64,000 nt of DNA from an uncultured Acidobacteriota bacterium. GTDB taxonomy: Bacteria; Acidobacteriota; Thermoanaerobaculia; Multivoradales; UBA5704. Under the pieces are notes generated by a model. It did not search any database and was not told where the DNA came from. It saw only the letters and a list, made by a program, of their open reading frames with translations. The stretch is taken from positions 2,848,001 through 2,912,000 of the forward strand of contig CAVYRF010000002.1 in the NCBI GenBank assembly GCA_963770895.1, given 5' to 3'. A program made the position numbers and the translations under genes. This document shows positions 25,422 through 37,520 of the stretch, piece by piece; the stretch's first letter is position 1; each line of letters starts with the position of its first letter.

Positions 25422-25716
25422 AGCATCCTCCCGCTAGAAAGGGTGAGGCGGCGGGCCGTTTGGGCGACAGAAATGCCATCTCGGATCGCAGGAAGTGTCT
25501 GTCTGCAGATCAATGTGATATGATTAAAGTCTGTAATTAATGATCATGCATACCCGCGACTATGAACAAGGCTCCGCTGGAGGGGTGCACTCGGCAGGGC
25601 GCGACGCACTAAGTTATAAAACTGCGGTTTTGCTGCGGGCCGGCAGGAGCTCCGAGACCGTCCGGACCACCCGACCGAAGAAGACCCCGGCCACTGCGGA
25701 GAAAAGAGAGGGACTC

Positions 25717-26142
25717 ATGTTGCGTCGTCGTGGCGTACTTCACTTCCTGGCCGTGGTGGCGGTCGCTCTACTGTTTCCTGGCGGCATTCACGCCCGCGCT
25801 ACCGGCGCTCCTGGTGTCACCGGCGCTTCCGGCGCCACCAGCGTCACCGGTTCCCCTGGCTCCCGTGGCGCTTCCGTCTCCACCGGCTCCACCCGCTCCA
25901 CCGGCTCCACCGTCTCCACCGGCTCCACCGGCTCCAATAGATTGACCGGCGCCCCGGCACATGCCGGAGCGCGGGTGGCAAGGACGCCGGCGCCGGCGGG
26001 CACCACCTCGACCGCGGCGGCGTTATGGCACTGGCTGGCGGACCTTGCCGGCCTGGCGCCCAAGGCCCAACCCGGCCACGGCGCTCCGGTGCGGACTCTG
26101 GGAGGCGGTTGCCCAAACCCGGACGGAGGCCCTTGCACCTGA
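25717..26142 (+). CDS. Small secreted precursor-like protein A (141 aa)
   Basis: GAGGG RBS; signal peptide MLRRRGVLHFLAVVAVALLFPGGIHA; STG repeats; LWHWLADL; C-terminus GGGCPNPDGGPCT. Confidence 0.75.
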   Translation: MLRRRGVLHFLAVVAVALLFPGGIHARATGAPGVTGASGATSVTGSPGSRGASVSTGSTRSTGSTVSTGSTGSNRLTGAPAHAGARVARTPAPAGTTSTAAALWHWLADLAGLAPKAQPGHGAPVRTLGGGCPNPDGGPCT

Positions 26143-26273
26143 CCGCCGGGCGCGGTGGCGGCAGGGTCGTCCTTCAGGCCGGCTGCCACCCGTCGCGATG
26201 GTCTGACTACGCGATGTGAGATAATTCTGTAATAATGTCTCGCGATGCGAACCCGAGGTCCCGAGGAGGTTCC

Positions 26274-28022
26274 GTGAACGACCACCCCACCGCCGCCGAG
26301 ATCGCCGGCATGGCCCGCGGCACCATTTCACGCAATGGCCTCCAGCGGATGGTGGCGCACCTGCTCGAAGGCTGCCAGCGCTGCGCCCGGCAGCTCGCTT
26401 CGGCAATCGAGCTGACGACGCCGGCGCAGGCTGCCGCCAGTACCGGCGCCGCCTGCAGCGGTGCCGGCCCTGCGCGCCGGTCCTCATCGCAAAGGCGTTC
26501 GCTGGCTCAGTCGGCGGCTCCTCAAGCCTATGACCAGGCCGCCTACGATCCGCCGATCGCCCGCGCCTGCGCCACGGCGCTACGCCACTTGCGCCAGCTT
26601 GAGCACGACCGCCGTCAGGTGCGCGCGGGGGAGCCTGACGCGGCGCCTCCGGCATCGTCACTGGCGGCAACGGCGCGGACGCCGGCCGCGAAGGCGACCA
26701 CCGCGCCGCTGGCCCTGGCGGCGACGCCGGCCCCAACTGCGCCGATGGCGACGCCGGCCCTGACTGGCCTGACTGCGATTCCGGCCCTGACTGACCTGGC
26801 CGCAACGCTGGCCACGACTCCTGCGACGAGGGCGGCGACCGCCAAGGCGACGGCGACGCCGGCCGGACAGGCTGACGCGGCGCCGCTTGCCGCGCTCGCT
26901 TCCCCCGGTGAGATCGCGCCGCAGGCGCGGCCGCCGGTCGCCGCCGCCGCGGCGCGAAGCCGGCGCAAGGATGGCTCCAAGGAGGGCGAGCGCCGGCACC
27001 CGGTCGCCCTGCTCAAGGTGGAAATGCTGCTCACCACGGCCTGGGATCTGCGCCACACCGACCCGCAAAAGATGCTCCAGATCGCCGAGCTGGCGCTCTC
27101 CGCGGCGGAGCGCCTGGATGGCTCCCGCCACGGCGAGGCGGCGGTGGCCGATCTGCGCGCCCGCGCCGCTGCCGAGCTGGGCAACGCCTACCGCGTCTGC
27201 GACGACTTCCTGCAGGCCGAGCGGATGATGGCCGAAGCGGTGCGCTGGCAGCGGCGGGGCAGCGGCGACCTGACGCTGGTGGTCCGCATCGGCGACCTGC
27301 TGGCATCGCTGCTGGTCGATCAGCGGCGATTCCCCGAAGCCGATGAGCTGCTCGACCAGGTGCAGAGCTACTACCAGAAGGAAAACGACCCCCACCTGGC
27401 CGGCCGGACGCTGATCAAGCGCGGTATCTTCGCCGGCTACGACGGCGCGCCGCGCCGCGCGCTCCGCTACCTGACGGAAGGGTTGGAGCTGATCGACGTG
27501 CAGCAGGACCGGCGCCTGGCGGTGCAGGCCGTGCACTCCATCCTGTGGAACCTGGTGGAATGCGAGCGCTACCGGCAGGCGCGCATCCACCTGTGGCGGA
27601 CGCGCGCGCTCCTGCTGGAGCACGGCGGGGAAATCTACCCGCTGCTGCTGCGCTGGCTGGAAGGGCGGATCGACGCCGGCCTGGGCGAGCTGGACCGCGC
27701 CGAGCGCGAGCTGGCGGCGACGCGCCAGGGGTTTGCGGACGCCGGCTACATCTTCAACGCCGCCCTGTCATCGCTCGACCTGGCCGCGGTGTGGCTGCGC
27801 CAGGGCAAGACCATGGCCGTGCGCCAGCTGGTCGAAGAGATGATAGCGACCTTTCGCGCCCTGCGCCTGGCGCGCGAAGCGGTGGCGGCGCTGCTCATCC
27901 TGCGCGAAGCGTGCGATCGCGACGAAGCGACCCTGGACCGCGTGCAGGCGGTGGCCGCGCTGCTCACCGAGCTGGAGCATCAGCAGCCGCGCCGTCACTC
28001 CGAAACGCCGGTCGCCGATTGA
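26274..28022 (+). CDS. Zinc-finger (zf-HC2-like) + TPR-like protein
   Basis: GGAGG + GTG; HPT...HLLEGCQRC; ELGNAYRV, LRWLEGRI, AALSSLDLA, REAVAAL. Confidence 0.8.
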   Translation: MNDHPTAAEIAGMARGTISRNGLQRMVAHLLEGCQRCARQLASAIELTTPAQAAASTGAACSGAGPARRSSSQRRSLAQSAAPQAYDQAAYDPPIARACATALRHLRQLEHDRRQVRAGEPDAAPPASSLAATARTPAAKATTAPLALAATPAPTAPMATPALTGLTAIPALTDLAATLATTPATRAATAKATATPAGQADAAPLAALASPGEIAPQARPPVAAAAARSRRKDGSKEGERRHPVALLKVEMLLTTAWDLRHTDPQKMLQIAELALSAAERLDGSRHGEAAVADLRARAAAELGNAYRVCDDFLQAERMMAEAVRWQRRGSGDLTLVVRIGDLLASLLVDQRRFPEADELLDQVQSYYQKENDPHLAGRTLIKRGIFAGYDGAPRRALRYLTEGLELIDVQQDRRLAVQAVHSILWNLVECERYRQARIHLWRTRALLLEHGGEIYPLLLRWLEGRIDAGLGELDRAERELAATRQGFADAGYIFNAALSSLDLAAVWLRQGKTMAVRQLVEEMIATFRALRLAREAVAALLILREACDRDEATLDRVQAVAALLTELEHQQPRRHSETPVAD

Positions 28023-28075
28023 GTCGCCCGCCGTCTGGAGGGCGGCGGCCGAACGGGTAGTGCAGACCGGTCGGG

Positions 28076-28624
28076 TCAGTCGTCGGGCCAGGAGTCTTGC
28101 GGCGGGATCTTGCCGCCGCCCAGCGGCAGCGGCGGCCCGACGCCGGCAGCGCCGGATGTGCCGGCGGGTGTCGTGGCTCCGATCAAGGTTTCTCGCGTTG
28201 CCGCCTTGAATCCGTCGCTCAATGCCGGCGGCCCGCCGCGATCCAGGACGCGGTCCAGAACGGCTTCGATGCGGCGGTCCAGCTCTTCGTTGGTCCACCG
28301 GCGCGACGGCGCCGGCGGCGGCGCGACGCGGCCGTAGCCCAGGCGCTGAAAGCTTTCCAGGACGCTGGTGGCGGCCGAGTCGCCGCCGTCTTCGACGCGC
28401 GGCTTGGCACACGCCAGCTGAAAGAAGCGCTCGGGTCTCATCCCGATCACTTCCAGGACGCGCAGGATGTGGCGGAGCTTGAGGTCGATGCGGCCGTTGA
28501 AGATGCGGTTGAGGGTTCCCGCTCCCAGATCGAGCCGGCGCTCGACCTCGCGCACCGAGAAGTCGGACAGCCGCACCAGGGCCTCGAGGACTCTCGCCAT
28601 GCGGCGGATGTCGTCGTCGACCAC
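28076..28624 (-). CDS. XRE-family HTH protein
   Basis: SVREVERRLDLGAGTLNRIFNGRIDLKLRHILRVLEVIG. Confidence 0.8.
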   Translation of the reverse strand: MVDDDIRRMARVLEALVRLSDFSVREVERRLDLGAGTLNRIFNGRIDLKLRHILRVLEVIGMRPERFFQLACAKPRVEDGGDSAATSVLESFQRLGYGRVAPPPAPSRRWTNEELDRRIEAVLDRVLDRGGPPALSDGFKAATRETLIGATTPAGTSGAAGVGPPLPLGGGKIPPQDSWPDD

Positions 28625-28745
28625 GGCGCGAGTCTACACCAGCCATCCCGGCCCACCGTTGCCGCGTCGCCTCGCCGCGGGATAGCATCCGTTGGCTTCG
28701 CAGCCTGCGCAGCGCGCCCGCGCTTTCAGATAGAGGAGGCTTCCG

Positions 28746-29894
28746 TTGGACTTTGCCCTGACCGACGAACAGCGCGCCATTCAAGCGACCGCCCGCGACT
28801 TCGCGCGCCAAGAGATCCATCCGATCGTCGACGAGATCGACGAAAGCCAGCGCTTCCCGCGCGAAGTGATGATGAAGGCGGGGGAGCTGGGCTTTCTCGG
28901 CATCATCTTTCCCGAAGAGTACGGCGGCGCCGGCCTCGGCTATGTCGAATACGTGCTGGTCGTCACCGAGCTGTCGCGCGTCGACCCCTCGGTCGGGATC
29001 AGCGTTGCCGCCCACAACTCCTTGTGCAGCAATCACATCTACAAGTTCGGCAGCGACGATCAACGGCGCCGGTGGCTGCGCCCCCTGGCGGCCGGGGAAA
29101 AGATCGGCGCCTGGAGTCTGACCGAGCCCGGTGCCGGCTCCGATGCCGCGGGGACGCGGACGCGGGCGGACCGGGTGGCGGGCGGCTGGGTGCTCAACGG
29201 CGCCAAGACGTTTACCACCCACGGCCGCGAGGGCGACATCTGCGTCGTCTTTGCCGTCACCGACCCGGCGGGTCCGCGCCACCACAACATCTCCGCCTTC
29301 GTGCTGGACAAGGGGATGGACGGCTTCCGCGCCGGCAAGAAGGAAAACAAGCTGGGCATCCGCGCCTCGGACACCTCCGAGGTGATCATGCAGGACTGCT
29401 TCGTGTCCGAGGACCGCCTGCTGGGCGACGCCGGCGAAGGCTTCATCCAGGCGCTCAAGATCCTGGACGGCGGGCGCATCTCGATCGCCGCCCTGGGGCT
29501 CGGCACCGCCAAGGGGGCGTACGACACCGCGCGCGCCTATGCCAAGGAGCGCCACCAGTTCGGCAAGCCGATCGCCGCCTTTCAGGCCATCCAGTTCATG
29601 CTGGCCGAAATGGCGACCACGGTTGCCGCCGCGGAATGCCTCACCCTGGCCGCCGCCGAAGCCATGGACCGCGGCGCCGACGTGTCGCGGCTGGCGTCCG
29701 AAGCCAAGCTGTACGCCGGTGAAGCCGCCGTCTTCTGCAGCGAGCGCGGCGTGCAGATCCACGGTGGCTACGGGTTCATCAAGGACTACCGGGCCGAGAA
29801 GTTCTACCGCGACGCCAAGATCTGCACCATCGGTGAAGGCACCAGCGAGATCCAGCGCCTGGTGATCGCGCGCCAGCTCCTCAAGGAGCGCTAG
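28746..29894 (+). CDS. Acyl-CoA dehydrogenase
   Basis: LTEPGAGSDA, KLGIRAS, QFGKPI, QIHGGYG, IGEGTSEIQR. Confidence 0.95.
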   Translation: MDFALTDEQRAIQATARDFARQEIHPIVDEIDESQRFPREVMMKAGELGFLGIIFPEEYGGAGLGYVEYVLVVTELSRVDPSVGISVAAHNSLCSNHIYKFGSDDQRRRWLRPLAAGEKIGAWSLTEPGAGSDAAGTRTRADRVAGGWVLNGAKTFTTHGREGDICVVFAVTDPAGPRHHNISAFVLDKGMDGFRAGKKENKLGIRASDTSEVIMQDCFVSEDRLLGDAGEGFIQALKILDGGRISIAALGLGTAKGAYDTARAYAKERHQFGKPIAAFQAIQFMLAEMATTVAAAECLTLAAAEAMDRGADVSRLASEAKLYAGEAAVFCSERGVQIHGGYGFIKDYRAEKFYRDAKICTIGEGTSEIQRLVIARQLLKER

Positions 29895-30901
29895 TGGCGG
29901 CGCTCGGGCGCAGCCGGCAGGATTGGCCGCTCGACGAGCTGGTGGCGCGTCTGATGGAGCGCCAGCCGCGCGCGCTGGGACGCGCTGTGTCGCTGGTGGA
30001 AGACGGCGGTGACGCGGCGCGGCAGCTCGTCGCGCGCGTCTATGGGCACACCGGCCGGGCGCGGGTGGTGGGGGTGACCGGTCCGCCCGGCGCCGGCAAG
30101 AGCACGCTGGTGGATCGCCTGGCTCGCCACTGTCGCGGGCGCGGCGAAACGGTGGGCATCCTGGCGGTCGACCCCACCAGCCCCTTCACCGGCGGCGCCC
30201 TGCTGGGCGACCGCATCCGCATGCAGAGCCACTACACCGACGGCGGCGTGTTCATCCGTTCGATGGCCACGCGCGGTGCGATGGGCGGTCTGGCGCGCGC
30301 CACCCGCGACGGGGTGGATCTGCTCGACGCCGCCGGATTCGACTGGGTGTTGGTCGAGACGGTGGGGGTGGGCCAGGACGAAGTGGACGTGGTGCGTTCG
30401 GTGGATTCCGTCGTGGTGGTCACCCTGCCCGGCCTGGGCGACGAGATCCAGGCGATCAAGGCGGGCATTCTGGAGATCGCCGACGTGTTCGTGATCAACA
30501 AGGCGGACCGCGAAGGAGTGGATCGTGCCTGGAAGGACCTTCACATGATGCTGTCGATCGGCGACCACGGTGCCTGGCTGCCGCCGGTGCTCAAGGTGAT
30601 CGCCACGCGCGACGAAGGCGTCGATCGGCTGCTGGCCGAGATCGACCGCCATCGCCGCCACCTGGAAGAGAGCGGCGAGCTCGCGGCCCGCCGCCGGTCG
30701 CACCTGCGGCTGCGCGTCGAAACCCTGCTCAAGGAGCGCGTCGTGGCGGCGGCCGACCGCCTGCTCGGCCTCGAACGCGAAGTCGAGCGCGGTTTCGCCG
30801 CCATGCTCGATCCCTACCAGGTGGCGGATCGGCTGTTTGCGGGCGTCGTCGACGGCGGCGCCGCTGCCGCCGCCACCGTCGCCGCGGAGCGAACGCTGTG
30901 A
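29894..30901 (+). CDS. meaB: Methylmalonyl-CoA mutase-associated GTPase MeaB
   Basis: GPPGAGKST, AVDPTSPFTGGALLGDRIRM, ETVGVGQ, NKAD. Confidence 0.95.
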   Translation: MAALGRSRQDWPLDELVARLMERQPRALGRAVSLVEDGGDAARQLVARVYGHTGRARVVGVTGPPGAGKSTLVDRLARHCRGRGETVGILAVDPTSPFTGGALLGDRIRMQSHYTDGGVFIRSMATRGAMGGLARATRDGVDLLDAAGFDWVLVETVGVGQDEVDVVRSVDSVVVVTLPGLGDEIQAIKAGILEIADVFVINKADREGVDRAWKDLHMMLSIGDHGAWLPPVLKVIATRDEGVDRLLAEIDRHRRHLEESGELAARRRSHLRLRVETLLKERVVAAADRLLGLEREVERGFAAMLDPYQVADRLFAGVVDGGAAAAATVAAERTL

Positions 30902-31359
30902 TCCGCGGCGTCGATCACATCGGCATCGCGGTGCGTTCGATCGCCGAAGGCCGGCTGTTCTACGAAGCGCTGGGGCTGCACGTCGAAGCCATCGAAGAGG
31001 TTCCCGGCGACCAGGTGCGGGTGGCGATGATCCCGTGCGGCGGCACCCACATCGAGCTGCTGGAGCCCACCTCGCCCGACTCGCCGGTGGCCCGCTTCCT
31101 CGATCGCCGGGGGCCCGGCCTGCACCACATCTGCCTGGCCAGCGACGGCCTGATCGCCGACGACGCGCAGCTGCGCCAGAGCGGCTATCGGGTGCTGCGC
31201 CCGGAGCCGACGCGCGGCGCCGGCGGCTGCTGGATCCAGTTCGTGCACCCGCAGAGCACCGGCGGCGTCCTGGTCGAGCTGTCGCAGCCGGGCGACGACA
31301 GCGACGGCGAGCCCGCGCTCGAGCCATCGCAGCCCCAGCCCCCGCCGCCCCGGCCATGA
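30898..31359 (+). CDS. mce: Methylmalonyl-CoA epimerase
   Basis: DHIGIAV, IELLEP, GLHHI, FVHP..GGVLVEL. Confidence 0.9.
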   Translation: MIRGVDHIGIAVRSIAEGRLFYEALGLHVEAIEEVPGDQVRVAMIPCGGTHIELLEPTSPDSPVARFLDRRGPGLHHICLASDGLIADDAQLRQSGYRVLRPEPTRGAGGCWIQFVHPQSTGGVLVELSQPGDDSDGEPALEPSQPQPPPPRP

Positions 31360-31724
31360 GAATCCGCGCCGGTTCGATCATTGTCGTGCACCTCAACAAC
31401 CCGACCGAGAAGTTCTGGGGGGTGCTGCAGGAGGTGGCGATGGCCGGCGTCTACCTGCGCGGCATCAGCGTCGACAGCTTCGACGACTGGATGGCGCAGG
31501 CGGTGCGCGGCAAGGACCAGACGCTCGGCCTCTGCTCCATGTTCGTGCCGCTGTTTCGCGTCGAGCGGATCTTCCTGGACGAGCCGGTGGGAGAGGTCGA
31601 GAGCTACCGCCAGCGCTTCTCCCGCCGCGTCGGGGTGGCGGTCGAGCGCTACCTGGACCTGGCCGATCCGGCCGGCGACGACGAAGGCGAAAAGGCCGGC
31701 TCGCCGCCGGAGATCCCCTCGTAA
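31356..31724 (+). CDS. Conserved-looking hypothetical protein
   Basis: ATGA overlap with mce; MRIRAGSIIVVHLNNPTEKFWGVL...FVPLFRVERIFLDE. Confidence 0.75.
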   Translation: MRIRAGSIIVVHLNNPTEKFWGVLQEVAMAGVYLRGISVDSFDDWMAQAVRGKDQTLGLCSMFVPLFRVERIFLDEPVGEVESYRQRFSRRVGVAVERYLDLADPAGDDEGEKAGSPPEIPS

Positions 31725-31753
31725 CCCCCGCGGCCCCGACCAGACCTCCGGCG

Positions 31754-32857
31754 TCAGTGTGCCGGCGCCCTTCCCAGGGGGTCTTCGTGCTCGCCGATCC
31801 GCCGTAGCAGGCGGTCCGTCAGGCGGCGTAGCGGCAGCGGTCGCGGTGGCAGCTCGGGCGTCGCCGGCTGGGCGGCATCCGCCAGGGAGCCGTCCTGCGC
31901 CAGGCCCAGGCCCCGCACCCCCGTCAGACACCCCAGCGCTTCCAGCGCCTGGCCGCTGGCCAGCGCCAGTCCGGCCTCCAGCCAGGCGCGCTCCAGGTCT
32001 TCGCCGGGAGCGGCTGGCAGGTCGTAGAGCAGCCGCGCTTCGTACAGCCGCTCGCGCGCCGCATCCCGGCTGCCCAGCGCCGCTTCGCAGATCGCCAGAC
32101 TGAGCAGCAGCCGCGCGGCCAGCGACGGCCATGCCGCCAGGTCGATCGCCTCCAGGGCAGCCCGCAGCTGCGGGCGCGCCTGCGCATAGTCGGCGTTCTC
32201 CTGCAGCAGGATGCCGGCCTGTGCGCGGCAGGCGGCCGCCGGCTCGGCATCCTCCAGCTGGCAGAACTGCTGCACGGCCTGGGTGAACAGTGCCACGGCC
32301 TCGTCGCGCGCCCCCTGGTCCACCCGCACCTGCGCCAGCCCCGCCGCCGCCAGGCCGCGTTCGCCGCTGGCCCCCGGCGGCACGAACGCCGCCATGGCCG
32401 CGAAGGACTCCTCCGCCGCCAGCCAGCGCTCGTCGTGCAGGTGGCACTTGCCGAGCAGCCAGCAGGCCAACGCCGCGGTGCGCCCGGCCGCCGTCCCCGG
32501 TTCCGCATCCAGCGCCAGCGCCACCGCCGCCGCCATCTCGGCCGCCTCCAAGTCCGGCACGCCTTCCAACAGCGCGCTCTCCGCCCGGTAGGCAAACAGC
32601 CGGGCCAGTGTTTCGCGCTGGAAGACCGGGTCCCGCCGCACCGCCTGCTGGCGCAGCCCGCGCGGCAGCCGCATCAGTTCTTCTCCCAACTCCCGGTCAA
32701 GCCCGCACGCCCTCACCATCGCCACCAACGACCGCAGCTCATAACCCTCGGGTCCGGCGGGGTGCCGCCGTGCCCGAAGTCCACCCGCATCCGGCAGTCG
32801 AGCCGGTGACAACCGGATGTCGCCATCGCCTCCCTCGCCAAGCTCGGAGTAGTCCAT
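31754..32857 (-). CDS. Divergent, possibly truncated TPR-like protein of the same family
   Basis: MDYSELG...; ACWLLGKCHL, RAWLEAGLALASG match family motifs; TACGCT 7 nt before the ATG. Confidence 0.65.
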   Translation of the reverse strand: MDYSELGEGGDGDIRLSPARLPDAGGLRARRHPAGPEGYELRSLVAMVRACGLDRELGEELMRLPRGLRQQAVRRDPVFQRETLARLFAYRAESALLEGVPDLEAAEMAAAVALALDAEPGTAAGRTAALACWLLGKCHLHDERWLAAEESFAAMAAFVPPGASGERGLAAAGLAQVRVDQGARDEAVALFTQAVQQFCQLEDAEPAAACRAQAGILLQENADYAQARPQLRAALEAIDLAAWPSLAARLLLSLAICEAALGSRDAARERLYEARLLYDLPAAPGEDLERAWLEAGLALASGQALEALGCLTGVRGLGLAQDGSLADAAQPATPELPPRPLPLRRLTDRLLRRIGEHEDPLGRAPAH

Positions 32858-33029
32858 CAAACTCAGCGTACGGGGTAACCTTCTGTCTGCCAAGCGTTTG
32901 CCGCAAATCCAGAACCTTGGTGAGGCTTCTTCGCCAGTTTCCCGGAGATTGCCGCCTCCGGTAACGCCGCGCCGCCTCGCGGCAGTTGTCACGATCTCGC
33001 CATTTTGGTGGCATGGAACAGCCTCAGGT

Positions 33030-33054
33030 GTGTCAATATCCGCTGTATTGGCAC
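33030..33054. promoter_or_regulatory. Candidate operator (inverted repeat)
   Basis: GTGTCAATA-N7-TATTGGCAC, 8/9 symmetric, in an A/T-rich divergent intergenic region. Confidence 0.5.
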
Positions 33055-33211
33055 TATTGAGGTCAAAAAGCACGACCAAAGAGTCGGGATTCACGAACTC
33101 GCGACTCCGCAATTGCGTCAATCGTGCGCGACCGTGCCTGCAGTGTCCCTGGGGAGGGTCTCCCGAGCCTGCCGCTGATGGCAGGATCTCGTGGTCCGAG
33201 GAAGGAGTGTT

Positions 33212-33553
33212 ATGCCCCGCATCCTCTGCTTTCTGGTTCTGTGCGTTCTGATTCTGGCTGTCCCGATGACCGCGTCCGCCGCTCAGGCGGGCCGGACAAC
33301 CGTCACATCGCATGGCAGCGGTGTGACCGCCTTCTGGTGGGCGATGCTTGAGCAGGTTTGGCACAATGCCACAACATTTAGCCCGTTCTGGCAACCGGCG
33401 CGAGGTGCCGGCGCTCAGCAGACCGGCAGCCGAGTGCGTCACTCCACGGTGACCACGCGGTCCACACCTCCGCTTACCGGCGGAGCCCATCTGGTGGATA
33501 ACAACTGCGACGGCGGATCGATGTTGGATCCCAACGGCCACTGCGGGGGCTGA
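33212..33553 (+). CDS. Small secreted precursor-like protein B (113 aa)
   Basis: AGGAAGGAG RBS; signal peptide MPRILCFLVLCVLILAVPMTASA; FWWAMLEQVW; C-terminus NNCDGGSMLDPNGHCGG. Confidence 0.8.
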   Translation: MPRILCFLVLCVLILAVPMTASAAQAGRTTVTSHGSGVTAFWWAMLEQVWHNATTFSPFWQPARGAGAQQTGSRVRHSTVTTRSTPPLTGGAHLVDNNCDGGSMLDPNGHCGG

Positions 33554-33620
33554 GCTATCTCCTTGCAGGTTACAGACGATCGCTCGGTCGGGTGCCGAGG
33601 CGAAGCTGGCGAGCGGGCTG

Positions 33621-35003
33621 TTATCCGGCGGCTTGCCGCAGCAGCTCGAAGGCGGCGAGAGCTTCGCGGTGTGTGCGCTGAGCACAAAACACCGCGGCGC
33701 TCTCGCGCGCCAAGGCTTGAGCCTCTGCCACCCGGCCGGCGGGAGCAAGAAGCGTCGCAAGCTCCAAGGACGCCAGAGCCGCGTCGTAGTTCACGTCGCA
33801 AGCGACAAACCGATTGCGCACTTCGGACAAGCTCGCGATGGCTTCGTCGACACGTCCCAGGCTGGCTGCCACTCGTCCTTTCAGCCACTGGACTCGGACC
33901 AGGTCCAAATCGCAGCCCAAGGGTTCGACCAGGCGGCGGGCCTCGTTCGCTACCGTGTCCGCCTCAGCGTAGCGTCGTAGCTCGCAAAGGCAATGCGCGA
34001 CCAGCAACCGGTGGATGAACAGGAGACGAGGTTGCGCAGTGCCGTCGATCAGCGTCGCCGCCTCTTCGACGGCGGCCATTGCACGCTCGCAGTGGCCGTC
34101 GTCGCAGTGGCCGAAGTCCAATAGGGCGCGCGCCTTGTTGAGCAGGATCCGCACCGGATCGGCGCCGCTCTCCAATGCCCGGTCAAGCAGGGCCAGCGCC
34201 TGGTTGGGGCGGCCCTGGTCGATGCGGAGAGAGGCTTCCAGCTCCAGCAGCAGGCTGCCGTGAAGCGAGCCGATGCCAGTGCTCCCCTGCCATAGCTCTG
34301 CCGCGCGGTTGAACGACTGATCAGCGCCCGGCAAGTCCGACGACACCCGCAAGGCGTTGCCGAGGTGAGCCCAGGTGTAGCCCTGGAGGCATTCACGACG
34401 GCGCCGATCCCCAGGTACAGCTTCGGCAATGTCCACGGCCAACTGCGCCAGCTCGATCGCTTCGCCAGGCGCCCGCGGCGTCAATTCAAGGCTCTTGGCA
34501 CAGAGCAGCACCGCCAGCGCTTCGCTCTGGAAGTCCGTGGCTTCTTCGACCAGGGCGCGGCGTTCCTGAGCGGATCTCTGGAGCAGCTTGGCGAGCAGCA
34601 GGGCAGCCCGATCGCCTGCGGAATTTGGCTTCGACGGCTCCGGCGGCTGGAGCGCCGGACGCAGGTGGGCGCGCAACAACTGCTGCAGATCATGCATCCA
34701 GTCCGAGGTGTCGGTGCGGCCGTGGCTGGAATCGGGTTTCTTGGCTGGCGAGCCCAACGTCTCCTTGCGCAGCTCGCGAATGCCCGCCAGGGCAACGCGC
34801 AGCGCGGCAGGGGTAAAGCCAAGCACCGAGCTGATGCGCTCCAGGGTTTCGGAGCTGGGCGTCTTACGTCCGGCTTCGATCGATGCCAGGTAACTGGTCC
34901 CTGTCCAGCCTAATGCGCGTGCGAGATCCTGCTGTTGCCATCCGCGACTCTGACGCAAAAGCCGTACTGCCAGGCCGAGCTCTGGAGGAGGCGGAGTGGT
35001 CAT
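33621..35003 (-). CDS. XRE-HTH + TPR-like regulator (paralog 2)
   Basis: LRQSRGWQQQDLARALG..YLASIEAGRKTPS; GYTWAHLGNALRV; WLKGRV; AALASLELA; start 35003 or 35030. Confidence 0.85.
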   Translation of the reverse strand: MTTPPPPELGLAVRLLRQSRGWQQQDLARALGWTGTSYLASIEAGRKTPSSETLERISSVLGFTPAALRVALAGIRELRKETLGSPAKKPDSSHGRTDTSDWMHDLQQLLRAHLRPALQPPEPSKPNSAGDRAALLLAKLLQRSAQERRALVEEATDFQSEALAVLLCAKSLELTPRAPGEAIELAQLAVDIAEAVPGDRRRRECLQGYTWAHLGNALRVSSDLPGADQSFNRAAELWQGSTGIGSLHGSLLLELEASLRIDQGRPNQALALLDRALESGADPVRILLNKARALLDFGHCDDGHCERAMAAVEEAATLIDGTAQPRLLFIHRLLVAHCLCELRRYAEADTVANEARRLVEPLGCDLDLVRVQWLKGRVAASLGRVDEAIASLSEVRNRFVACDVNYDAALASLELATLLAPAGRVAEAQALARESAAVFCAQRTHREALAAFELLRQAAG

Positions 35004-35051
35004 GGGATGTGGTGGCCGCAGGGATCTCACGCCGTCAGGATTGCCCAGCGA

Positions 35052-36521
35052 TCACGACGTGCTCCTGAAGCACAGCCCCGGATTGTGATGGGCGCTGCAA
35101 AGATAGGTCACCAGCTGGCGGCAGAGCTCGGCCGTCGCGGTCTCCTTCTCGGCCGCTTGCCGGAACAGCTCCAACGCCGCCTGCGCTTCGCGGTGGACCT
35201 GCTGGGCGCGAAAGATCGCGGCGCTCTGCCGAGCCAAGGTTTTGACTGCGCCGGTGCGGTTTTCGGAGGCTAGGATGGTGGCCAGCTCAAGAGACACCAG
35301 GGCGGCGTCCCATGCGTTGTCGCGAACGATGAAGTCGCTGCGCACCTGGTGGAAGGTCGCAATGGCTTCTTCGCTACGGCCGAGGCCCGCGGCCAGCTTG
35401 CCCTCCAACCAGAGAATGCGGACGAGGTCGATCTCATTGCCGAGTCGTTCCGCCAGCATCCGCACCTGGCCGATGATCCCCTGGGCCGCAGGATAGTTTT
35501 CGGCGTAGCACCAAGCGTGAGCGAGGTACTGCAGCTGGATGAGAAACAGCCTTGGCTCACGCTCCGCATTGATCAAGGGCGCAGTATCTTGTAGCAGGTC
35601 GATCGCGCGCTCGTACTCGGCGACGTCGATCAGGGCCTTGGCCTTGTTGAGCAGCAGTCTGGGCGGCGCATTGCTGCTCACCAGGGCTTGGTCCAGCACG
35701 GCCAGCGCTTGCCAGGGTTGCCCTTGGTGCAGTCGCAAGGACGCCTCCAGGTCGAGCAGACGGCTGCCATCGAGCAGGCCGGATTCGTCGCCGGAGTGCC
35801 AGAGCTTTTTGGCCTGGCGGAAGGCATCTTCGGCTGCGGGAAGGTCGGAGGAGACGCGCAGGGCGTTGCCGAGATGGGCCCAGGCGTAGCCCTGGACACG
35901 GCGAGGCCAGGGATCGGCGCCGGGGACCTGAGCGGCGATCTCAAGGGCCATGTGAGCCAGCTCGACGGCTTCCTTGGGCTTGCGGGGCGCGGCTTCCAGG
36001 CTGCGCTCGCAGAGCAGCTCGCAGAGGCCCCAGGTCTGGAATTCGGGGGCGTCTTCGATCAGGACGCGGCGCTCCTGGGGCGAGCGGCGCTGCAGGCGTG
36101 CCCAGAGGCCGTGGGCGGCGCGGCGCTCTTCGAGGACGCGGGCGTCGGACAGGACGCGGTCCAGGGTTTCGCGGGCGAAGTCGCGGACGCGGGCGGCGAT
36201 CTGGTCGGCGATGGCGTCGATGGGGAGCTTTTCGGTGTCGGTGGCGACGGCTTCGGTTCCCTGGGAGGCCTTGACCACCGACTGCACCCGGTCGAAGAAG
36301 GTGGCGGAGTAGCCGAGGGCGGCGAGCAGCTGGCGCTGGGTCTTGGCGGAGGGGGCGCGGACGGCTCGCTCGTAGTCGGAGACGCTGCCAGGTTTGAGCC
36401 CGGCTGCTTCGTCAAGGCGCTGTTGCGAGACGCCGCGCAGCACGCGCAGAACCATCAGGGTACCGGCGAGGGTGGTTCGCGGAGGTCCCCATTGAGACCG
36501 GACGCGCACGGTGGAAGCCAT
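35052..36521 (-). CDS. XRE-HTH + TPR-like regulator (paralog 1)
   Basis: LRVLRGVSQQRLDEAAGLKPGSVSDYERAVRAPS; GYAWAHLGNALRV; WLEGKL; AALVSLELA; GGAGG RBS. Confidence 0.85.
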   Translation of the reverse strand: MASTVRVRSQWGPPRTTLAGTLMVLRVLRGVSQQRLDEAAGLKPGSVSDYERAVRAPSAKTQRQLLAALGYSATFFDRVQSVVKASQGTEAVATDTEKLPIDAIADQIAARVRDFARETLDRVLSDARVLEERRAAHGLWARLQRRSPQERRVLIEDAPEFQTWGLCELLCERSLEAAPRKPKEAVELAHMALEIAAQVPGADPWPRRVQGYAWAHLGNALRVSSDLPAAEDAFRQAKKLWHSGDESGLLDGSRLLDLEASLRLHQGQPWQALAVLDQALVSSNAPPRLLLNKAKALIDVAEYERAIDLLQDTAPLINAEREPRLFLIQLQYLAHAWCYAENYPAAQGIIGQVRMLAERLGNEIDLVRILWLEGKLAAGLGRSEEAIATFHQVRSDFIVRDNAWDAALVSLELATILASENRTGAVKTLARQSAAIFRAQQVHREAQAALELFRQAAEKETATAELCRQLVTYLCSAHHNPGLCFRSTS

Positions 36522-36725
36522 CGGTGATCCTCCCGAGACAGAGTCGCCATTTAAGAAACACGGTGCGCTCCAGCCCTGTGTGCGATCCGCGGAGCGCCTG
36601 CCGATCTGTTATTTCCCGGTAGAGATCTTAAGTGAGCGTGGCAAACCTGTCACGCCGGCCGGCGGCAAATCGTTGATTGTGGCGGCGCGGCGCGGCGAGA
36701 TGATTACTTTTTGAGCCGTGCTTTG

Positions 36726-37520
36726 CTAGAACTGCACATTGGAGATAAAAAATGTCGCGGGGTCGACCTTCTTTGCCACCAGGTCGGCGGCGTTCTCGGC
36801 CGTCAGTACGAACTGTCCCGCCTTTTCGTGAGTCGGCGTTTTCATCAGCAGCTCGACCAGCTGCACCTGCTGGGGGAACCGCTCGCGCGCGCGCAGCAGG
36901 GCGTTGGCGCTGGCGTTGAGGGTCTGGAAGACCGACCCTTCCGATCCGGTGGTGAATTCCAGCAGCAGCCGGTCGGGCTGCGAACCGGTGAACATCTCGA
37001 CGTCGTCCATCCCCTGGGAGTGGAAGAAGTCGCGCAGGTCGGCGGTGACGTCGGCGTGGGCATAGGGGGCGTGCGGCAGCGCCGCGAAGTCGACGTTGCC
37101 GGCATAGGTTCGCGCCGCCGCTCCCGGCTTGGTGTCGGTGGTCCGCTTGGCGGTCGGCAGCTCGCGGGAGGACGGCCGGTGGGTGGCGATGAGGTCGCTC
37201 AGGTTCTTGTCCTGCGCCGCCGGCAGCTCGTGGCCGGGAACGACCTTGGTGGTCCCCAGGTCGGTCGTGCCGTAATCCTTGGTGCGATTGGCGGCTTCGG
37301 TGCGCGGCACGTCGATCTGCTTGGCGTCGATGAAGGTCTGGATGCCGTTGGGCAGGGTGATGATGGCGTGCCCGTCCTTGACCTCATACTTGTCCTTTGC
37401 CGCGATCCGGGAGCCGTCCTTGAGCCAGATGACGTAGGCGGCGAGCGGTGTGACGCCGACCAGCGTCAGCAGCGCCAGGGCGCAGCAGAGAACCGGCATG
37501 GAAAGTCGGGACGAGCGCAT
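36726..37520 (-). CDS. Secreted hypothetical protein
   Basis: Signal peptide; YVIWLKDGSRI N-terminal domain; GGAG RBS. Confidence 0.75.
   Translation of the reverse strand: MRSSRLSMPVLCCALALLTLVGVTPLAAYVIWLKDGSRIAAKDKYEVKDGHAIITLPNGIQTFIDAKQIDVPRTEAANRTKDYGTTDLGTTKVVPGHELPAAQDKNLSDLIATHRPSSRELPTAKRTTDTKPGAAARTYAGNVDFAALPHAPYAHADVTADLRDFFHSQGMDDVEMFTGSQPDRLLLEFTTGSEGSVFQTLNASANALLRARERFPQQVQLVELLMKTPTHEKAGQFVLTAENAADLVAKKVDPATFFISNVQF

Follow-up and report, generated by a model that had tools for sequence, protein, structure and literature searches.

Within the window, a 64,000-nucleotide stretch of contig 2 from the 8.16-Mb, 3-contig genome of an uncultured Acidobacteriota bacterium, the region of 25.5-36.5 kb was found to hold two cassettes of one gene system, and all eight genes were confirmed. 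An earlier note on this DNA had described two modules, each composed of a small secreted open reading frame (ORF), a tetratricopeptide repeat (TPR) protein and an XRE-type helix-turn-helix (HTH) domain that was fused or separate, and these genes and domains were found as described. It was concluded that the system is real and RRNPP-like, while its function is unproven. The cassettes look like the peptide-based cell-to-cell signalling that is so far known only from Gram-positive bacteria, and we considered the chances about even that they form a peptide-sensor system working like RRNPP quorum sensing. A full-text search of the literature, supplements excluded, gave no description of such a system in Acidobacteriota or in any Gram-negative bacterium. 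The closest named relatives of the window belonged to Thermoanaerobaculia, Acidobacteriota.

In cassette 1, the precursor gene pep1 (+) was followed by the sensor gene T1 (+) and by a convergent gene encoding a separate HTH protein (-). In cassette 2, the regulator genes T4 and T3 were placed in tandem (-), and pep2 (+) lay tail to tail with T3 and head to head with T2 (-). The pep1 stop was separated from the T1 start by 92 bp, the pep2 stop from the T3 stop by 67 bp and the pep2 start from the T2 start by 354 bp, and 21 bp lay between T4 and the downstream, co-directional T3. The cassettes were treated as independent and not as one locus, since three housekeeping genes, encoding an acyl-CoA dehydrogenase, a MeaB GTPase and a glyoxalase-fold (glyoxalase-type) epimerase, were placed between them (28746-31359). 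Two previously proposed gene starts were replaced. The signal peptide of pep1 begins at ATG 25717 and not at 25540 (that of pep2 begins at 33212), and T1 probably starts at 26235, because its conserved N-terminus begins upstream of 26274. The features are listed in the table below.

Features of the two cassettes, with positions given in the window
Feature	Position	Strand	Description	Basis or remark
pep1	25717..26142	+	predicted secreted-peptide precursor, 141 aa	open frame extends back to 25540
T1	26235..28022	+	predicted cytoplasmic TPR sensor, 595 aa	BLASTP to T3, alignment, AF2 model
separate HTH protein	28076..28624	-	HTH protein, 182 aa	sub-threshold Pfam HTH, conserved neighbourhood
T2	31754..32857	-	TPR-only paralog, 367 aa	BLASTP to T3, subfamily profile
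inverted repeat	33165..33188		9-nt arms, 6-nt spacer, pep2 leader	repeat search
pep2	33212..33553	+	predicted secreted-peptide precursor, 113 aa	open frame extends back to 33191
T3	33621..35030	-	XRE-HTH and TPR regulator, 469 aa	Pfam, AF2
T4	35052..36521	-	XRE-HTH and TPR regulator, 489 aa	Pfam, similarity to T3

The linkage of peptide and sensor genes exceeded chance. The sensor family was represented in this genome by 58 six-frame ORFs (E<1e-8) at 29 loci, which agreed with the many-paralog family proposed previously. A peptide hidden Markov model (HMM) was built from 43 precursors of other genomes only and was applied to this genome. At E<0.05 it recovered 17 six-frame ORFs, all of them at most 595 bp from a T-family ORF, when the 600-bp territory around the T-family ORFs made up 1.81% of the genome. 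Three weaker matches (E of at least 0.11) were located at least 21 kb from family ORFs. The pep2 gene itself was found by the profile from other genomes with an E value of 0.0028, and the HMM and motif scans together gave 24 peptide genes at 20 of the 29 family loci. The co-localization that the earlier note had put forward was thus obtained both in this genome and across genomes.

The same arrangement was observed in 80 loci (L001-L080) taken from other Thermoanaerobaculia metagenome-assembled genomes. An ORF with the strict peptide motif was present at 47 of the 80 loci, and 24 of the other 33 contained an ORF with a broader DP-x-G loop, 23 of these being in the same convergent position. At 56 of the 80 loci, a family member of at least 380 aa was directly followed by a loop-peptide ORF on the other strand, and a second family gene diverged from the peptide gene in 37 of these 56 convergent loci. 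At the T1-type loci of related genomes, an upstream co-directional ORF ending in the DP-x-G motif was recorded in 13 cases out of 19, and the separate HTH protein accompanied the T1 ortholog in 10 of the 19 loci of other genomes. Within this genome, six of the nine relatives of the separate HTH protein (E<1e-8) were encoded at most 250 bp from a T-family gene. No consistent cargo was seen in the 80 loci, where sensors (183 genes), peptides and a single small helical protein made up the recurrent families.

Both precursors carried a basic n-region, a hydrophobic core and an AxA-type site in a rule-based Sec signal-peptide test, and the same rule-based signal, with a hydrophobic run of at least 9 residues between the n-region and the AxA-type site, was found in 21 further precursors of this genome. 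The pep1 start codon was preceded by a purine-rich stretch similar to a Shine-Dalgarno sequence, and pep2 had an AAGGAG Shine-Dalgarno and a signal peptide ending in ..TASA. In pep1, a Gly/Ser/Thr-rich insert was followed by a Trp/Leu amphipathic helix (LWHWLADL) and by a C-terminal loop, C-P-N-P-D-G-G-P-C, after which came one residue and the stop. The Trp-rich helix of pep2 was FWWAMLEQVW, and its C-terminal loop, C-x6-DPNG-H-C, was followed by GG and the stop. This anatomy of signal peptide, Trp-rich amphipathic helix and C-terminal loops was found genome-wide, with one to four loops of the form C-x2-DP-x-G-x1-3-C per precursor and the last loop ending 2-5 residues ahead of the stop. Some cassettes had a linear ..DP[YN]GG precursor end without Cys. 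Across 46 aligned precursors, the loop G-C, D-P, G and C were nearly invariant, and the residues between them varied. A conserved C-terminal motif had been expected and was found, but its core was DP-x-G, usually bracketed by two Cys residues, and not [DN]P[DN]G, as the family had N, D, S, H, Y, F, W or L at x.

No family of Pfam or NCBIfam covered pep1, pep2 or the related precursors, and the matches in ESM Atlas were limited to unnamed Acidobacteriota clusters, all scoring below 0.9. A profile of the 46-sequence alignment was compared with a library of 1.84 billion proteins at 50% identity, which resulted in 2687 representatives at E<=0.001 and 1057 at E<=1e-10; most of the best 150 library relatives were 95-150 aa long. 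A Pfam Collagen match of pep1 (E 5.5e-4) was rejected, being below the cut-off and reflecting the low-complexity Gly/Ser/Thr insert. This stretch (25795-25960) was absent from the orthologs. A cluster for a ribosomally synthesized and post-translationally modified peptide was rejected as well, since no modifying enzyme recurred in the 80 loci and the sole NCBIfam match of this kind had an E value of 0.099.

The four TPR proteins share one common sensor domain. T3 and T4 were 43% identical over 457 residues (E 3e-102), and the C-terminal part of T1 was 30% identical to T3 over 311 residues (E 8e-19, BLASTP). T2 gave a marginal BLASTP match to T3 (30% identity, 152 residues, E 1e-4), and a profile of eight T2-type paralogs aligned with the HTH-TPR profile at 98% probability (E 1.6e-13, 307 columns, hhalign). 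The four proteins were therefore regarded as homologous, as had been suggested before, T2 being recognizable by profile comparison only. Of the motifs named in the earlier note, AAL.SL[DE]LA and REA.AA were found by alignment in T1, T3 and T4 as claimed. The motifs LGNA[YL]RV and WL[EK]G[RK], which had been assigned to all four proteins, were also present in T1, T3 and T4, but T2 had a degenerate form only. In this genome the family profile matched T4 best (E 3.9e-175), and 323 relatives of T3 were obtained at E<=0.001 among 8000 candidates scored.

The XRE-family domain HTH_3 of Pfam was found above its curated cut-off of 23 bits in T3 (E 4.8e-13, 49.4 bits) and T4 (E 7.3e-9, 36.0 bits). TPR_12 was above the cut-off in T3 (37.6 bits), the TPR matches of T4 were below it, and T1 and T2 showed sub-threshold TPR_12 matches only (E 1.1e-4 and 7.7e-4). 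The separate HTH protein, which had an XRE-like HTH at the N-terminus and a variable tail, remained below threshold with HTH_31 (E 8.6e-5) and HTH_3 (E 3.5e-4, 21.0 bits against the cut-off of 23). NCBIfam and PADLOC gave nothing past generic HTH and TPR in the cassette proteins. T3 was composed of an HTH (residues 17-77), a disordered linker (95-135) and a TPR superhelix (137-469), and its AlphaFold2 (AF2) model (mean pLDDT 88.9) showed the HTH, the disordered linker and a helical solenoid of 330 residues. The T1 model had a pLDDT of 76 overall, 95-98 in the TPR solenoid and 83-87 in the N-terminal module. The TPR domain of T1 covered residues 256-583, and residues 17-57 formed a three-helix His/Cys module with H17 and H42-x4-C47-x2-C50; H17, H42, C47 and C50 were nearly invariant in an alignment of 20 T1-type sequences. 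An Ala/Thr/Pro-rich disordered linker occupied roughly residues 130-255 of T1, and about 130 residues of it were absent from the orthologs. T2 had no HTH and missed the final part of the sensor domain; its subfamily counted nine ORFs in this genome. T1 had no hydrophobic segment above a Kyte-Doolittle value of 1.43, and none of the 57 called family genes encoded a convincing transmembrane segment. The sensors are predicted to be cytoplasmic and the precursors to be exported.

The common sensor domain was combined with different outputs, namely a fused HTH, the His/Cys module together with a separate HTH, a neighbouring gene resembling an extracytoplasmic function (ECF) sigma factor, or none. 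An adjacent ECF-sigma-like gene was the output at two other loci of this genome. The first three wirings of this one sensor were the strongest new argument for the TPR domain as a common input module. The ECF-sigma-like genes (175-187 aa) beside sensor members with the His/Cys module were noted at C2:5718550-5719086, C2:5720086-5721342 and C2:2999411-2999938. Open frames of 700-790 aa with two XRE HTHs, one near each end, were also noted at three trio loci of this genome (C2:5559411-5561789, C2:4274525-4276666 and C2:1905121-1907214; L087-L089), and each may be a fused regulator or a pair of genes read as a single one.

The T1 module resembled zinc-binding anti-sigma (ZAS) factors, whose motif is H-x3-C-x2-C, by its three helices with H17, H42, C47 and C50. 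Other family members of this genome had H-x3-C-x2-C itself and weak zf-HC2 matches below the cut-off (E 0.0019 and 0.03), and the two family members that sit beside ECF-sigma-like genes recall the pairing of ZAS proteins with ECF sigma factors. T1 differed from them by its H-x4-C-x2-C, which was one residue off, by having no zf-HC2 match even at E<=10, by a conserved neighbour that was an XRE-like HTH protein and not a sigma factor, and by the lack of a transmembrane segment. Hence, the combination of the motif or a zf-HC2 match with an ECF sigma neighbour, which defines ZAS membership, was not found in T1.

In a comparison of structures, the top match of the sensor was APPBP2 (PDB 8jal; Z 29.5, rmsd 2.7 A, 296 residues, identity 17%), and the best bacterial matches were Rap, NprR and AimR, with Z scores of 23.7 for RapF with its peptide, 23.4 for phi3T Rap with its pheromone, 21.7 for NprR-NprX and 19.4 for AimR with its ligand. 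MalT domain III (Z 21.5) and the TPR proteins of APC/C and LGN (Z 20-23) were matched as well. APPBP2, a CRL2 substrate receptor for the RxxGP C-terminal degron, is likewise a TPR solenoid and reads a short Gly/Pro C-terminal peptide, but it is a eukaryotic ubiquitin-ligase subunit and no functional relation is implied.

The system was also compared with the five-part RRNPP signature given in a passage of PMC10075063, which comprises a propeptide of 10-100 aa, Sec export, a receptor of 250-500 aa, TPRs and adjacent genes. T3 and T4 with pep2 agreed with four of these five features. Sec export was indicated by the rule-based test, T2 (367 aa), T3 (469 aa) and T4 (489 aa) fell within the receptor range, the AF2 models of T3 and T1 were all-helical repeat solenoids with pLDDT above 90, and adjacency was found for pep1/T1, pep2/T3 and pep2/T2. 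The propeptide size was slightly exceeded (pep2 113 aa, pep1 141 aa). T1, at 595 aa, is above the receptor range owing to its linker insert that is absent from the orthologs. In passages of PMC10075063 and PMC12700828, RRNPP(A) is presented as belonging to Bacillota and their mobile elements, and the present host lies outside Bacillota.

The likeness to RRNPP/RRNPPA pairs such as NprR-NprX, PlcR-PapR and AimR-AimP comprised a cytoplasmic protein of similar size that joins an N-terminal XRE HTH to a C-terminal TPR superhelix, a small gene immediately beside it whose product has a signal peptide, a candidate active part at the precursor C-terminus, many paralogous pairs per genome and structural similarity at Z 19-22. 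In contrast to them, the proteins showed no sequence homology to RRNPP receptors, the host belonged to a diderm Acidobacteriota class, and the genes were in convergent or divergent order with two regulators around one peptide gene. Known RRNPP pheromones are linear and unmodified according to PMC12998947, whereas here a DP-x-G turn was found that was mostly closed by two Cys residues and repeated up to four times. T2 and its eight paralogs, which have the sensor domain without a DNA-binding domain, resembled the TPR-only receptors of the Rap-Phr type, and among bacterial structures the sensor matched Rap proteins best (Z 23-24). Unlike Rap, they had no N-terminal three-helix domain of the phosphatase type and no sequence homology, and the T2 sensor was truncated C-terminally. 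No RRNPP-specific model was matched in Pfam or NCBIfam. The earlier designation as RRNPP-like was retained for the layout and for the structural matches to Rap, NprR and AimR. Since the signature was mostly present and the homology was not, the system was considered RRNPP-like on paper and not a member of the RRNPP superfamily.

We proposed that the precursor of each cassette would be exported by Sec and cleaved downstream of the Trp-rich helix, resulting in short peptides built on the DP-x-G turn, and that a disulfide would close the turn where two Cys residues flank it. The peptides would accumulate outside, re-enter the cell and bind to the concave face of the TPR domain, about 330 residues long, of the adjacent proteins. 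The binding would switch the output, which would be the fused XRE HTH in T3 and T4, whereas in T1 the His/Cys N-terminal module would probably hold or release the separate HTH protein. T2, which has no output domain, would act by protein contact, like Rap proteins. The likely first target would be the peptide gene itself, as the inverted repeat would lie between the promoter region and the ribosome-binding site. We infer the cleavage, disulfide formation, outer-membrane exit, re-import, binding and regulated genes of this scheme. The genome encoded one DsbA-like protein and, outside the window, two Opp/Dpp-type binding proteins (SBP_bac_5, PF00496), which shows their presence only; VKOR was not found in the genome.

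A different use of the same parts would be a secretion-coupled feedback, in which the TPR domain binds the unexported precursor by its signal peptide or its Trp-rich helix and reports export capacity. TPR chaperone co-activators of type III secretion are a model for it. Such a mechanism would need no re-import, with receptors that are predicted to be cytoplasmic, and it would give a role to the Trp-rich helix, which is conserved across all subtypes and otherwise unexplained. The most conserved precursor columns were those of the loops and not of the helix, the loop number and the P-x-G residue varied between cassettes in the manner of a specificity element, and it is difficult to see why one general process should have dozens of sensors in parallel. 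This feedback was therefore judged to be improbable.

Several observations weighed against peptide signalling of the RRNPP type. The patterns used revealed no peptide gene at 9 of the 29 loci of this genome and at 9 of the 80 foreign loci. The precursors (about 95-150 aa) were longer than those of RRNPP systems, in which the conserved Trp-rich helix has no counterpart. The TPR fold is generic; APC/C subunits and LGN scored level with Rap, and Foldseek placed designed TPR proteins first, followed by other generic TPR matches. A 71-member profile, among the best 60 of 96 matches in PDB, found XRE HTH and generic TPR proteins only and no RRNPP chain at E<=0.01. No conclusion was drawn from a co-fold of the T3 TPR domain (residues 130-469, with alignment) with the exported part of pep2 (residues 32-120), which was run without controls and scored 0.01 against a mark of 0.32. 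To reach a cytoplasmic receptor, a disulfide-closed peptide made in a diderm periplasm has to pass two times through the outer membrane and one time through the inner membrane. The cassettes were not linked to any dedicated exporter, protease or importer, and the window genes confirmed the previous statement that neither an importer nor a protease is present there. The tandem DP[ND]G units in proteins of 731 and 783 aa imply that the motif could be a structural repeat, and plain local regulation would likewise put a regulator beside its target gene.

The last three points belong as well to an account in which the Cys-loop protein is itself the product, of antimicrobial, metal-binding, adhesive or matrix function, and is regulated locally by HTH-TPR proteins whose TPR domain senses another cue or protein. 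The head-to-head placement of the peptide gene with one regulator and the inverted repeat in its leader correspond to the usual layout of a regulator and its target, and the existence of large proteins with many tandem DP[ND]G units and the absence of a linked importer or protease are readily accommodated. Nevertheless, no other cargo, immunity or export gene was present in the cassettes, and the account would mean at least 24 variants of a tiny effector per genome, each with one to three private regulators. Moreover, the sensor has changed faster than the DNA-binding domain at the syntenic locus, and this is unexpected if a common cue is sensed. Local regulation of a secreted effector, although the main rival, was regarded as rather unlikely. 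The tandem-unit proteins were the library entries P0151 (783 aa) and P0177 (731 aa), both large and secreted, in which dozens of xDP[ND]G[KR] units stood in tandem, flanked by N- and C-terminal regions that were unrelated. Such proteins may serve as peptide precursors of the polyprotein type, or the units may be a structural repeat.

The divergence was measured at the syntenic T1 locus in 6-7 same-genus genomes. The acyl-CoA dehydrogenase was 85-91% identical, the HTH domain of the separate HTH protein 71-77% (6 same-genus loci), the TPR sensor domain 56-66% and the T1 N-terminal module 41-60%, and the peptide gave no tblastn match while its loop scaffold persisted. The peptide and the sensor diverge fast. 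When 50 receptors on a tree were labelled by peptide class (polar versus aromatic, His or Leu at P-x-G), eight changes of class were counted, and 300 label shuffles gave a mean of 14.8 changes with a minimum of 9. As relatives share labels, this result was read as co-inheritance and not as co-evolution.

Of 301 genomes sampled evenly from the phylum, six had a match at E<=1e-20, and all six were in the class of the window. Matches were found in 19 of 21 relatives, with 1 to 32 per genome, and the named relatives were all Thermoanaerobaculia or Acidobacteriota. Cassette 1 was syntenic among housekeeping genes in seven same-genus loci, and cassette 2 had no DNA match in nine same-genus genomes, from which a variable repertoire was concluded. 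The G+C content was 70-72% across the window and fell to 66-68% over 32-36 kb. Such variability and the lower G+C (66-68% against about 72%) would suit an anti-phage defence or mobile-element addiction module under XRE-type repressors, and the PADLOC HTH models HTH_VI, RmrA, capH and control protein did match the HTH of T3 and T4. These matches covered the generic HTH only, no effector, nuclease, toxin, integrase or phage gene was found in the window region or among the recurrent neighbours, and the synteny of cassette 1 among housekeeping genes also spoke against a mobile module. The defence role suggested at first was unsupported by these data, and it was considered highly improbable.

The leaders of the peptide genes contained a further element. 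In trio-type cassettes of other genomes, the 70 nt ahead of the peptide start carried a conserved inverted repeat, CGGCC-ATGGA-GGCCG, outer complementary arms and a CUCC able to pair with the Shine-Dalgarno sequence; examples among loci L001-L078 are L008:5800-5887 and L025:5594-5681, both on the - strand. In 43 leaders the mean folding z was -2.0, z was below -2 in 26 and the Shine-Dalgarno was paired in 35. The own leaders of this genome were weaker (mean z -0.55). The outer stems were derived from single-sequence folds; RNAalifold on MAFFT leader alignments gave no consensus in one case and the inner 4-bp stem only in another, and Rfam had nothing at the gathering score in the window and nothing on the leaders of five loci. 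The half-site spacing of the repeat, 10 bp, suits an HTH dimer, and an operator for such a dimer and a leader hairpin are equally possible. The pep2 repeat was located 24-47 nt before the start codon with an unremarkable folding z of -0.12 and is, judged from its sequence, a candidate operator or leader hairpin. The pep1 leader had no inverted repeat, and a sigma-70 promoter scan around pep2 gave 0 sites. Eight sequencing runs of DNA or unknown type from four studies covered parts of 31700-36600, and no RNA run was found among them.

The broadest reading falls somewhat short of an even chance, and we put it forward tentatively. According to it, a class of diderm soil bacteria would maintain dozens of private peptide channels per genome, with multi-copy precursors giving disulfide-closed DP-x-G nonapeptide rings in which the P-x-G residue and the loop flanks serve as the code. 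Each channel would have its own cytoplasmic TPR sensor, with a fused HTH, an ECF sigma factor or, through a zinc-finger-like module, a separate HTH as its output, and RRNPP-type quorum sensing or kin discrimination would have been invented independently in bacteria that are not Gram-positive. If the cassettes do signal as proposed, peptide signalling through TPR receptors would also exist in Acidobacteriota, a soil phylum that is dominant but poorly cultured, and the problem would be raised of how a ring peptide passes two membranes. The 2687 precursor clusters would then offer a natural library of peptide-sensor pairs for studies of specificity and the design of orthogonal synthetic circuits. 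A passage of PMC12700828 states that the RRNPPA family needs an outgroup, and the present sensor family could be tried in that role. The region contributes, as new features, a T1-type cassette in which the HTH is separate and the N-terminal module zinc-finger-like, a T2 type that lacks an HTH, linear DP-x-GG precursor variants, the gradient of divergence and the leader element.

Some minor elements were recorded near the family genes. An AT-rich box of about 20 nt, nearly identical (..AAAAAGTGTATTTTTAACC..), stood about 95 nt before four paralogous peptide genes of this genome (C2:5556236, C2:3839122, C2:1901571 and C1:2039573) and may be a promoter or a binding site. Matches to the Acido-Lenti-1 RNA (RF01687) were located just upstream of a regulator gene in another genome, at L008:3427-3473 (+) with 41.1 bits (gathering score 37) and at L008:3255-3302 (-) with 32.3 bits. 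Adjoining T4, a protein of 264 aa with a signal-peptide-like N-terminus was encoded at 36726-37520 (-); it had no Pfam family, and NCBIfam gave a weak lipoprotein match only (E 0.014).

The recurrent small helical protein (about 85-110 aa, 45 genes) occurred in 41 of the 80 foreign loci, for example at L004:3350-3652, and was read from the strand opposite to the convergent regulator, some 100-700 bp upstream of it. It was sometimes fused to or preceded by an HLLxGCxxC mini-protein of about 80 aa that resembled the T1 N-terminal module. Five relatives were encoded in this genome, one of them at a family locus and none in the window. Proteins that looked by eye like GNAT-type acetyltransferases were present at four of the 80 foreign loci and at three family loci of this genome (C2:492554-493444, C2:3842688-3843287 and C1:1693382-1694269).

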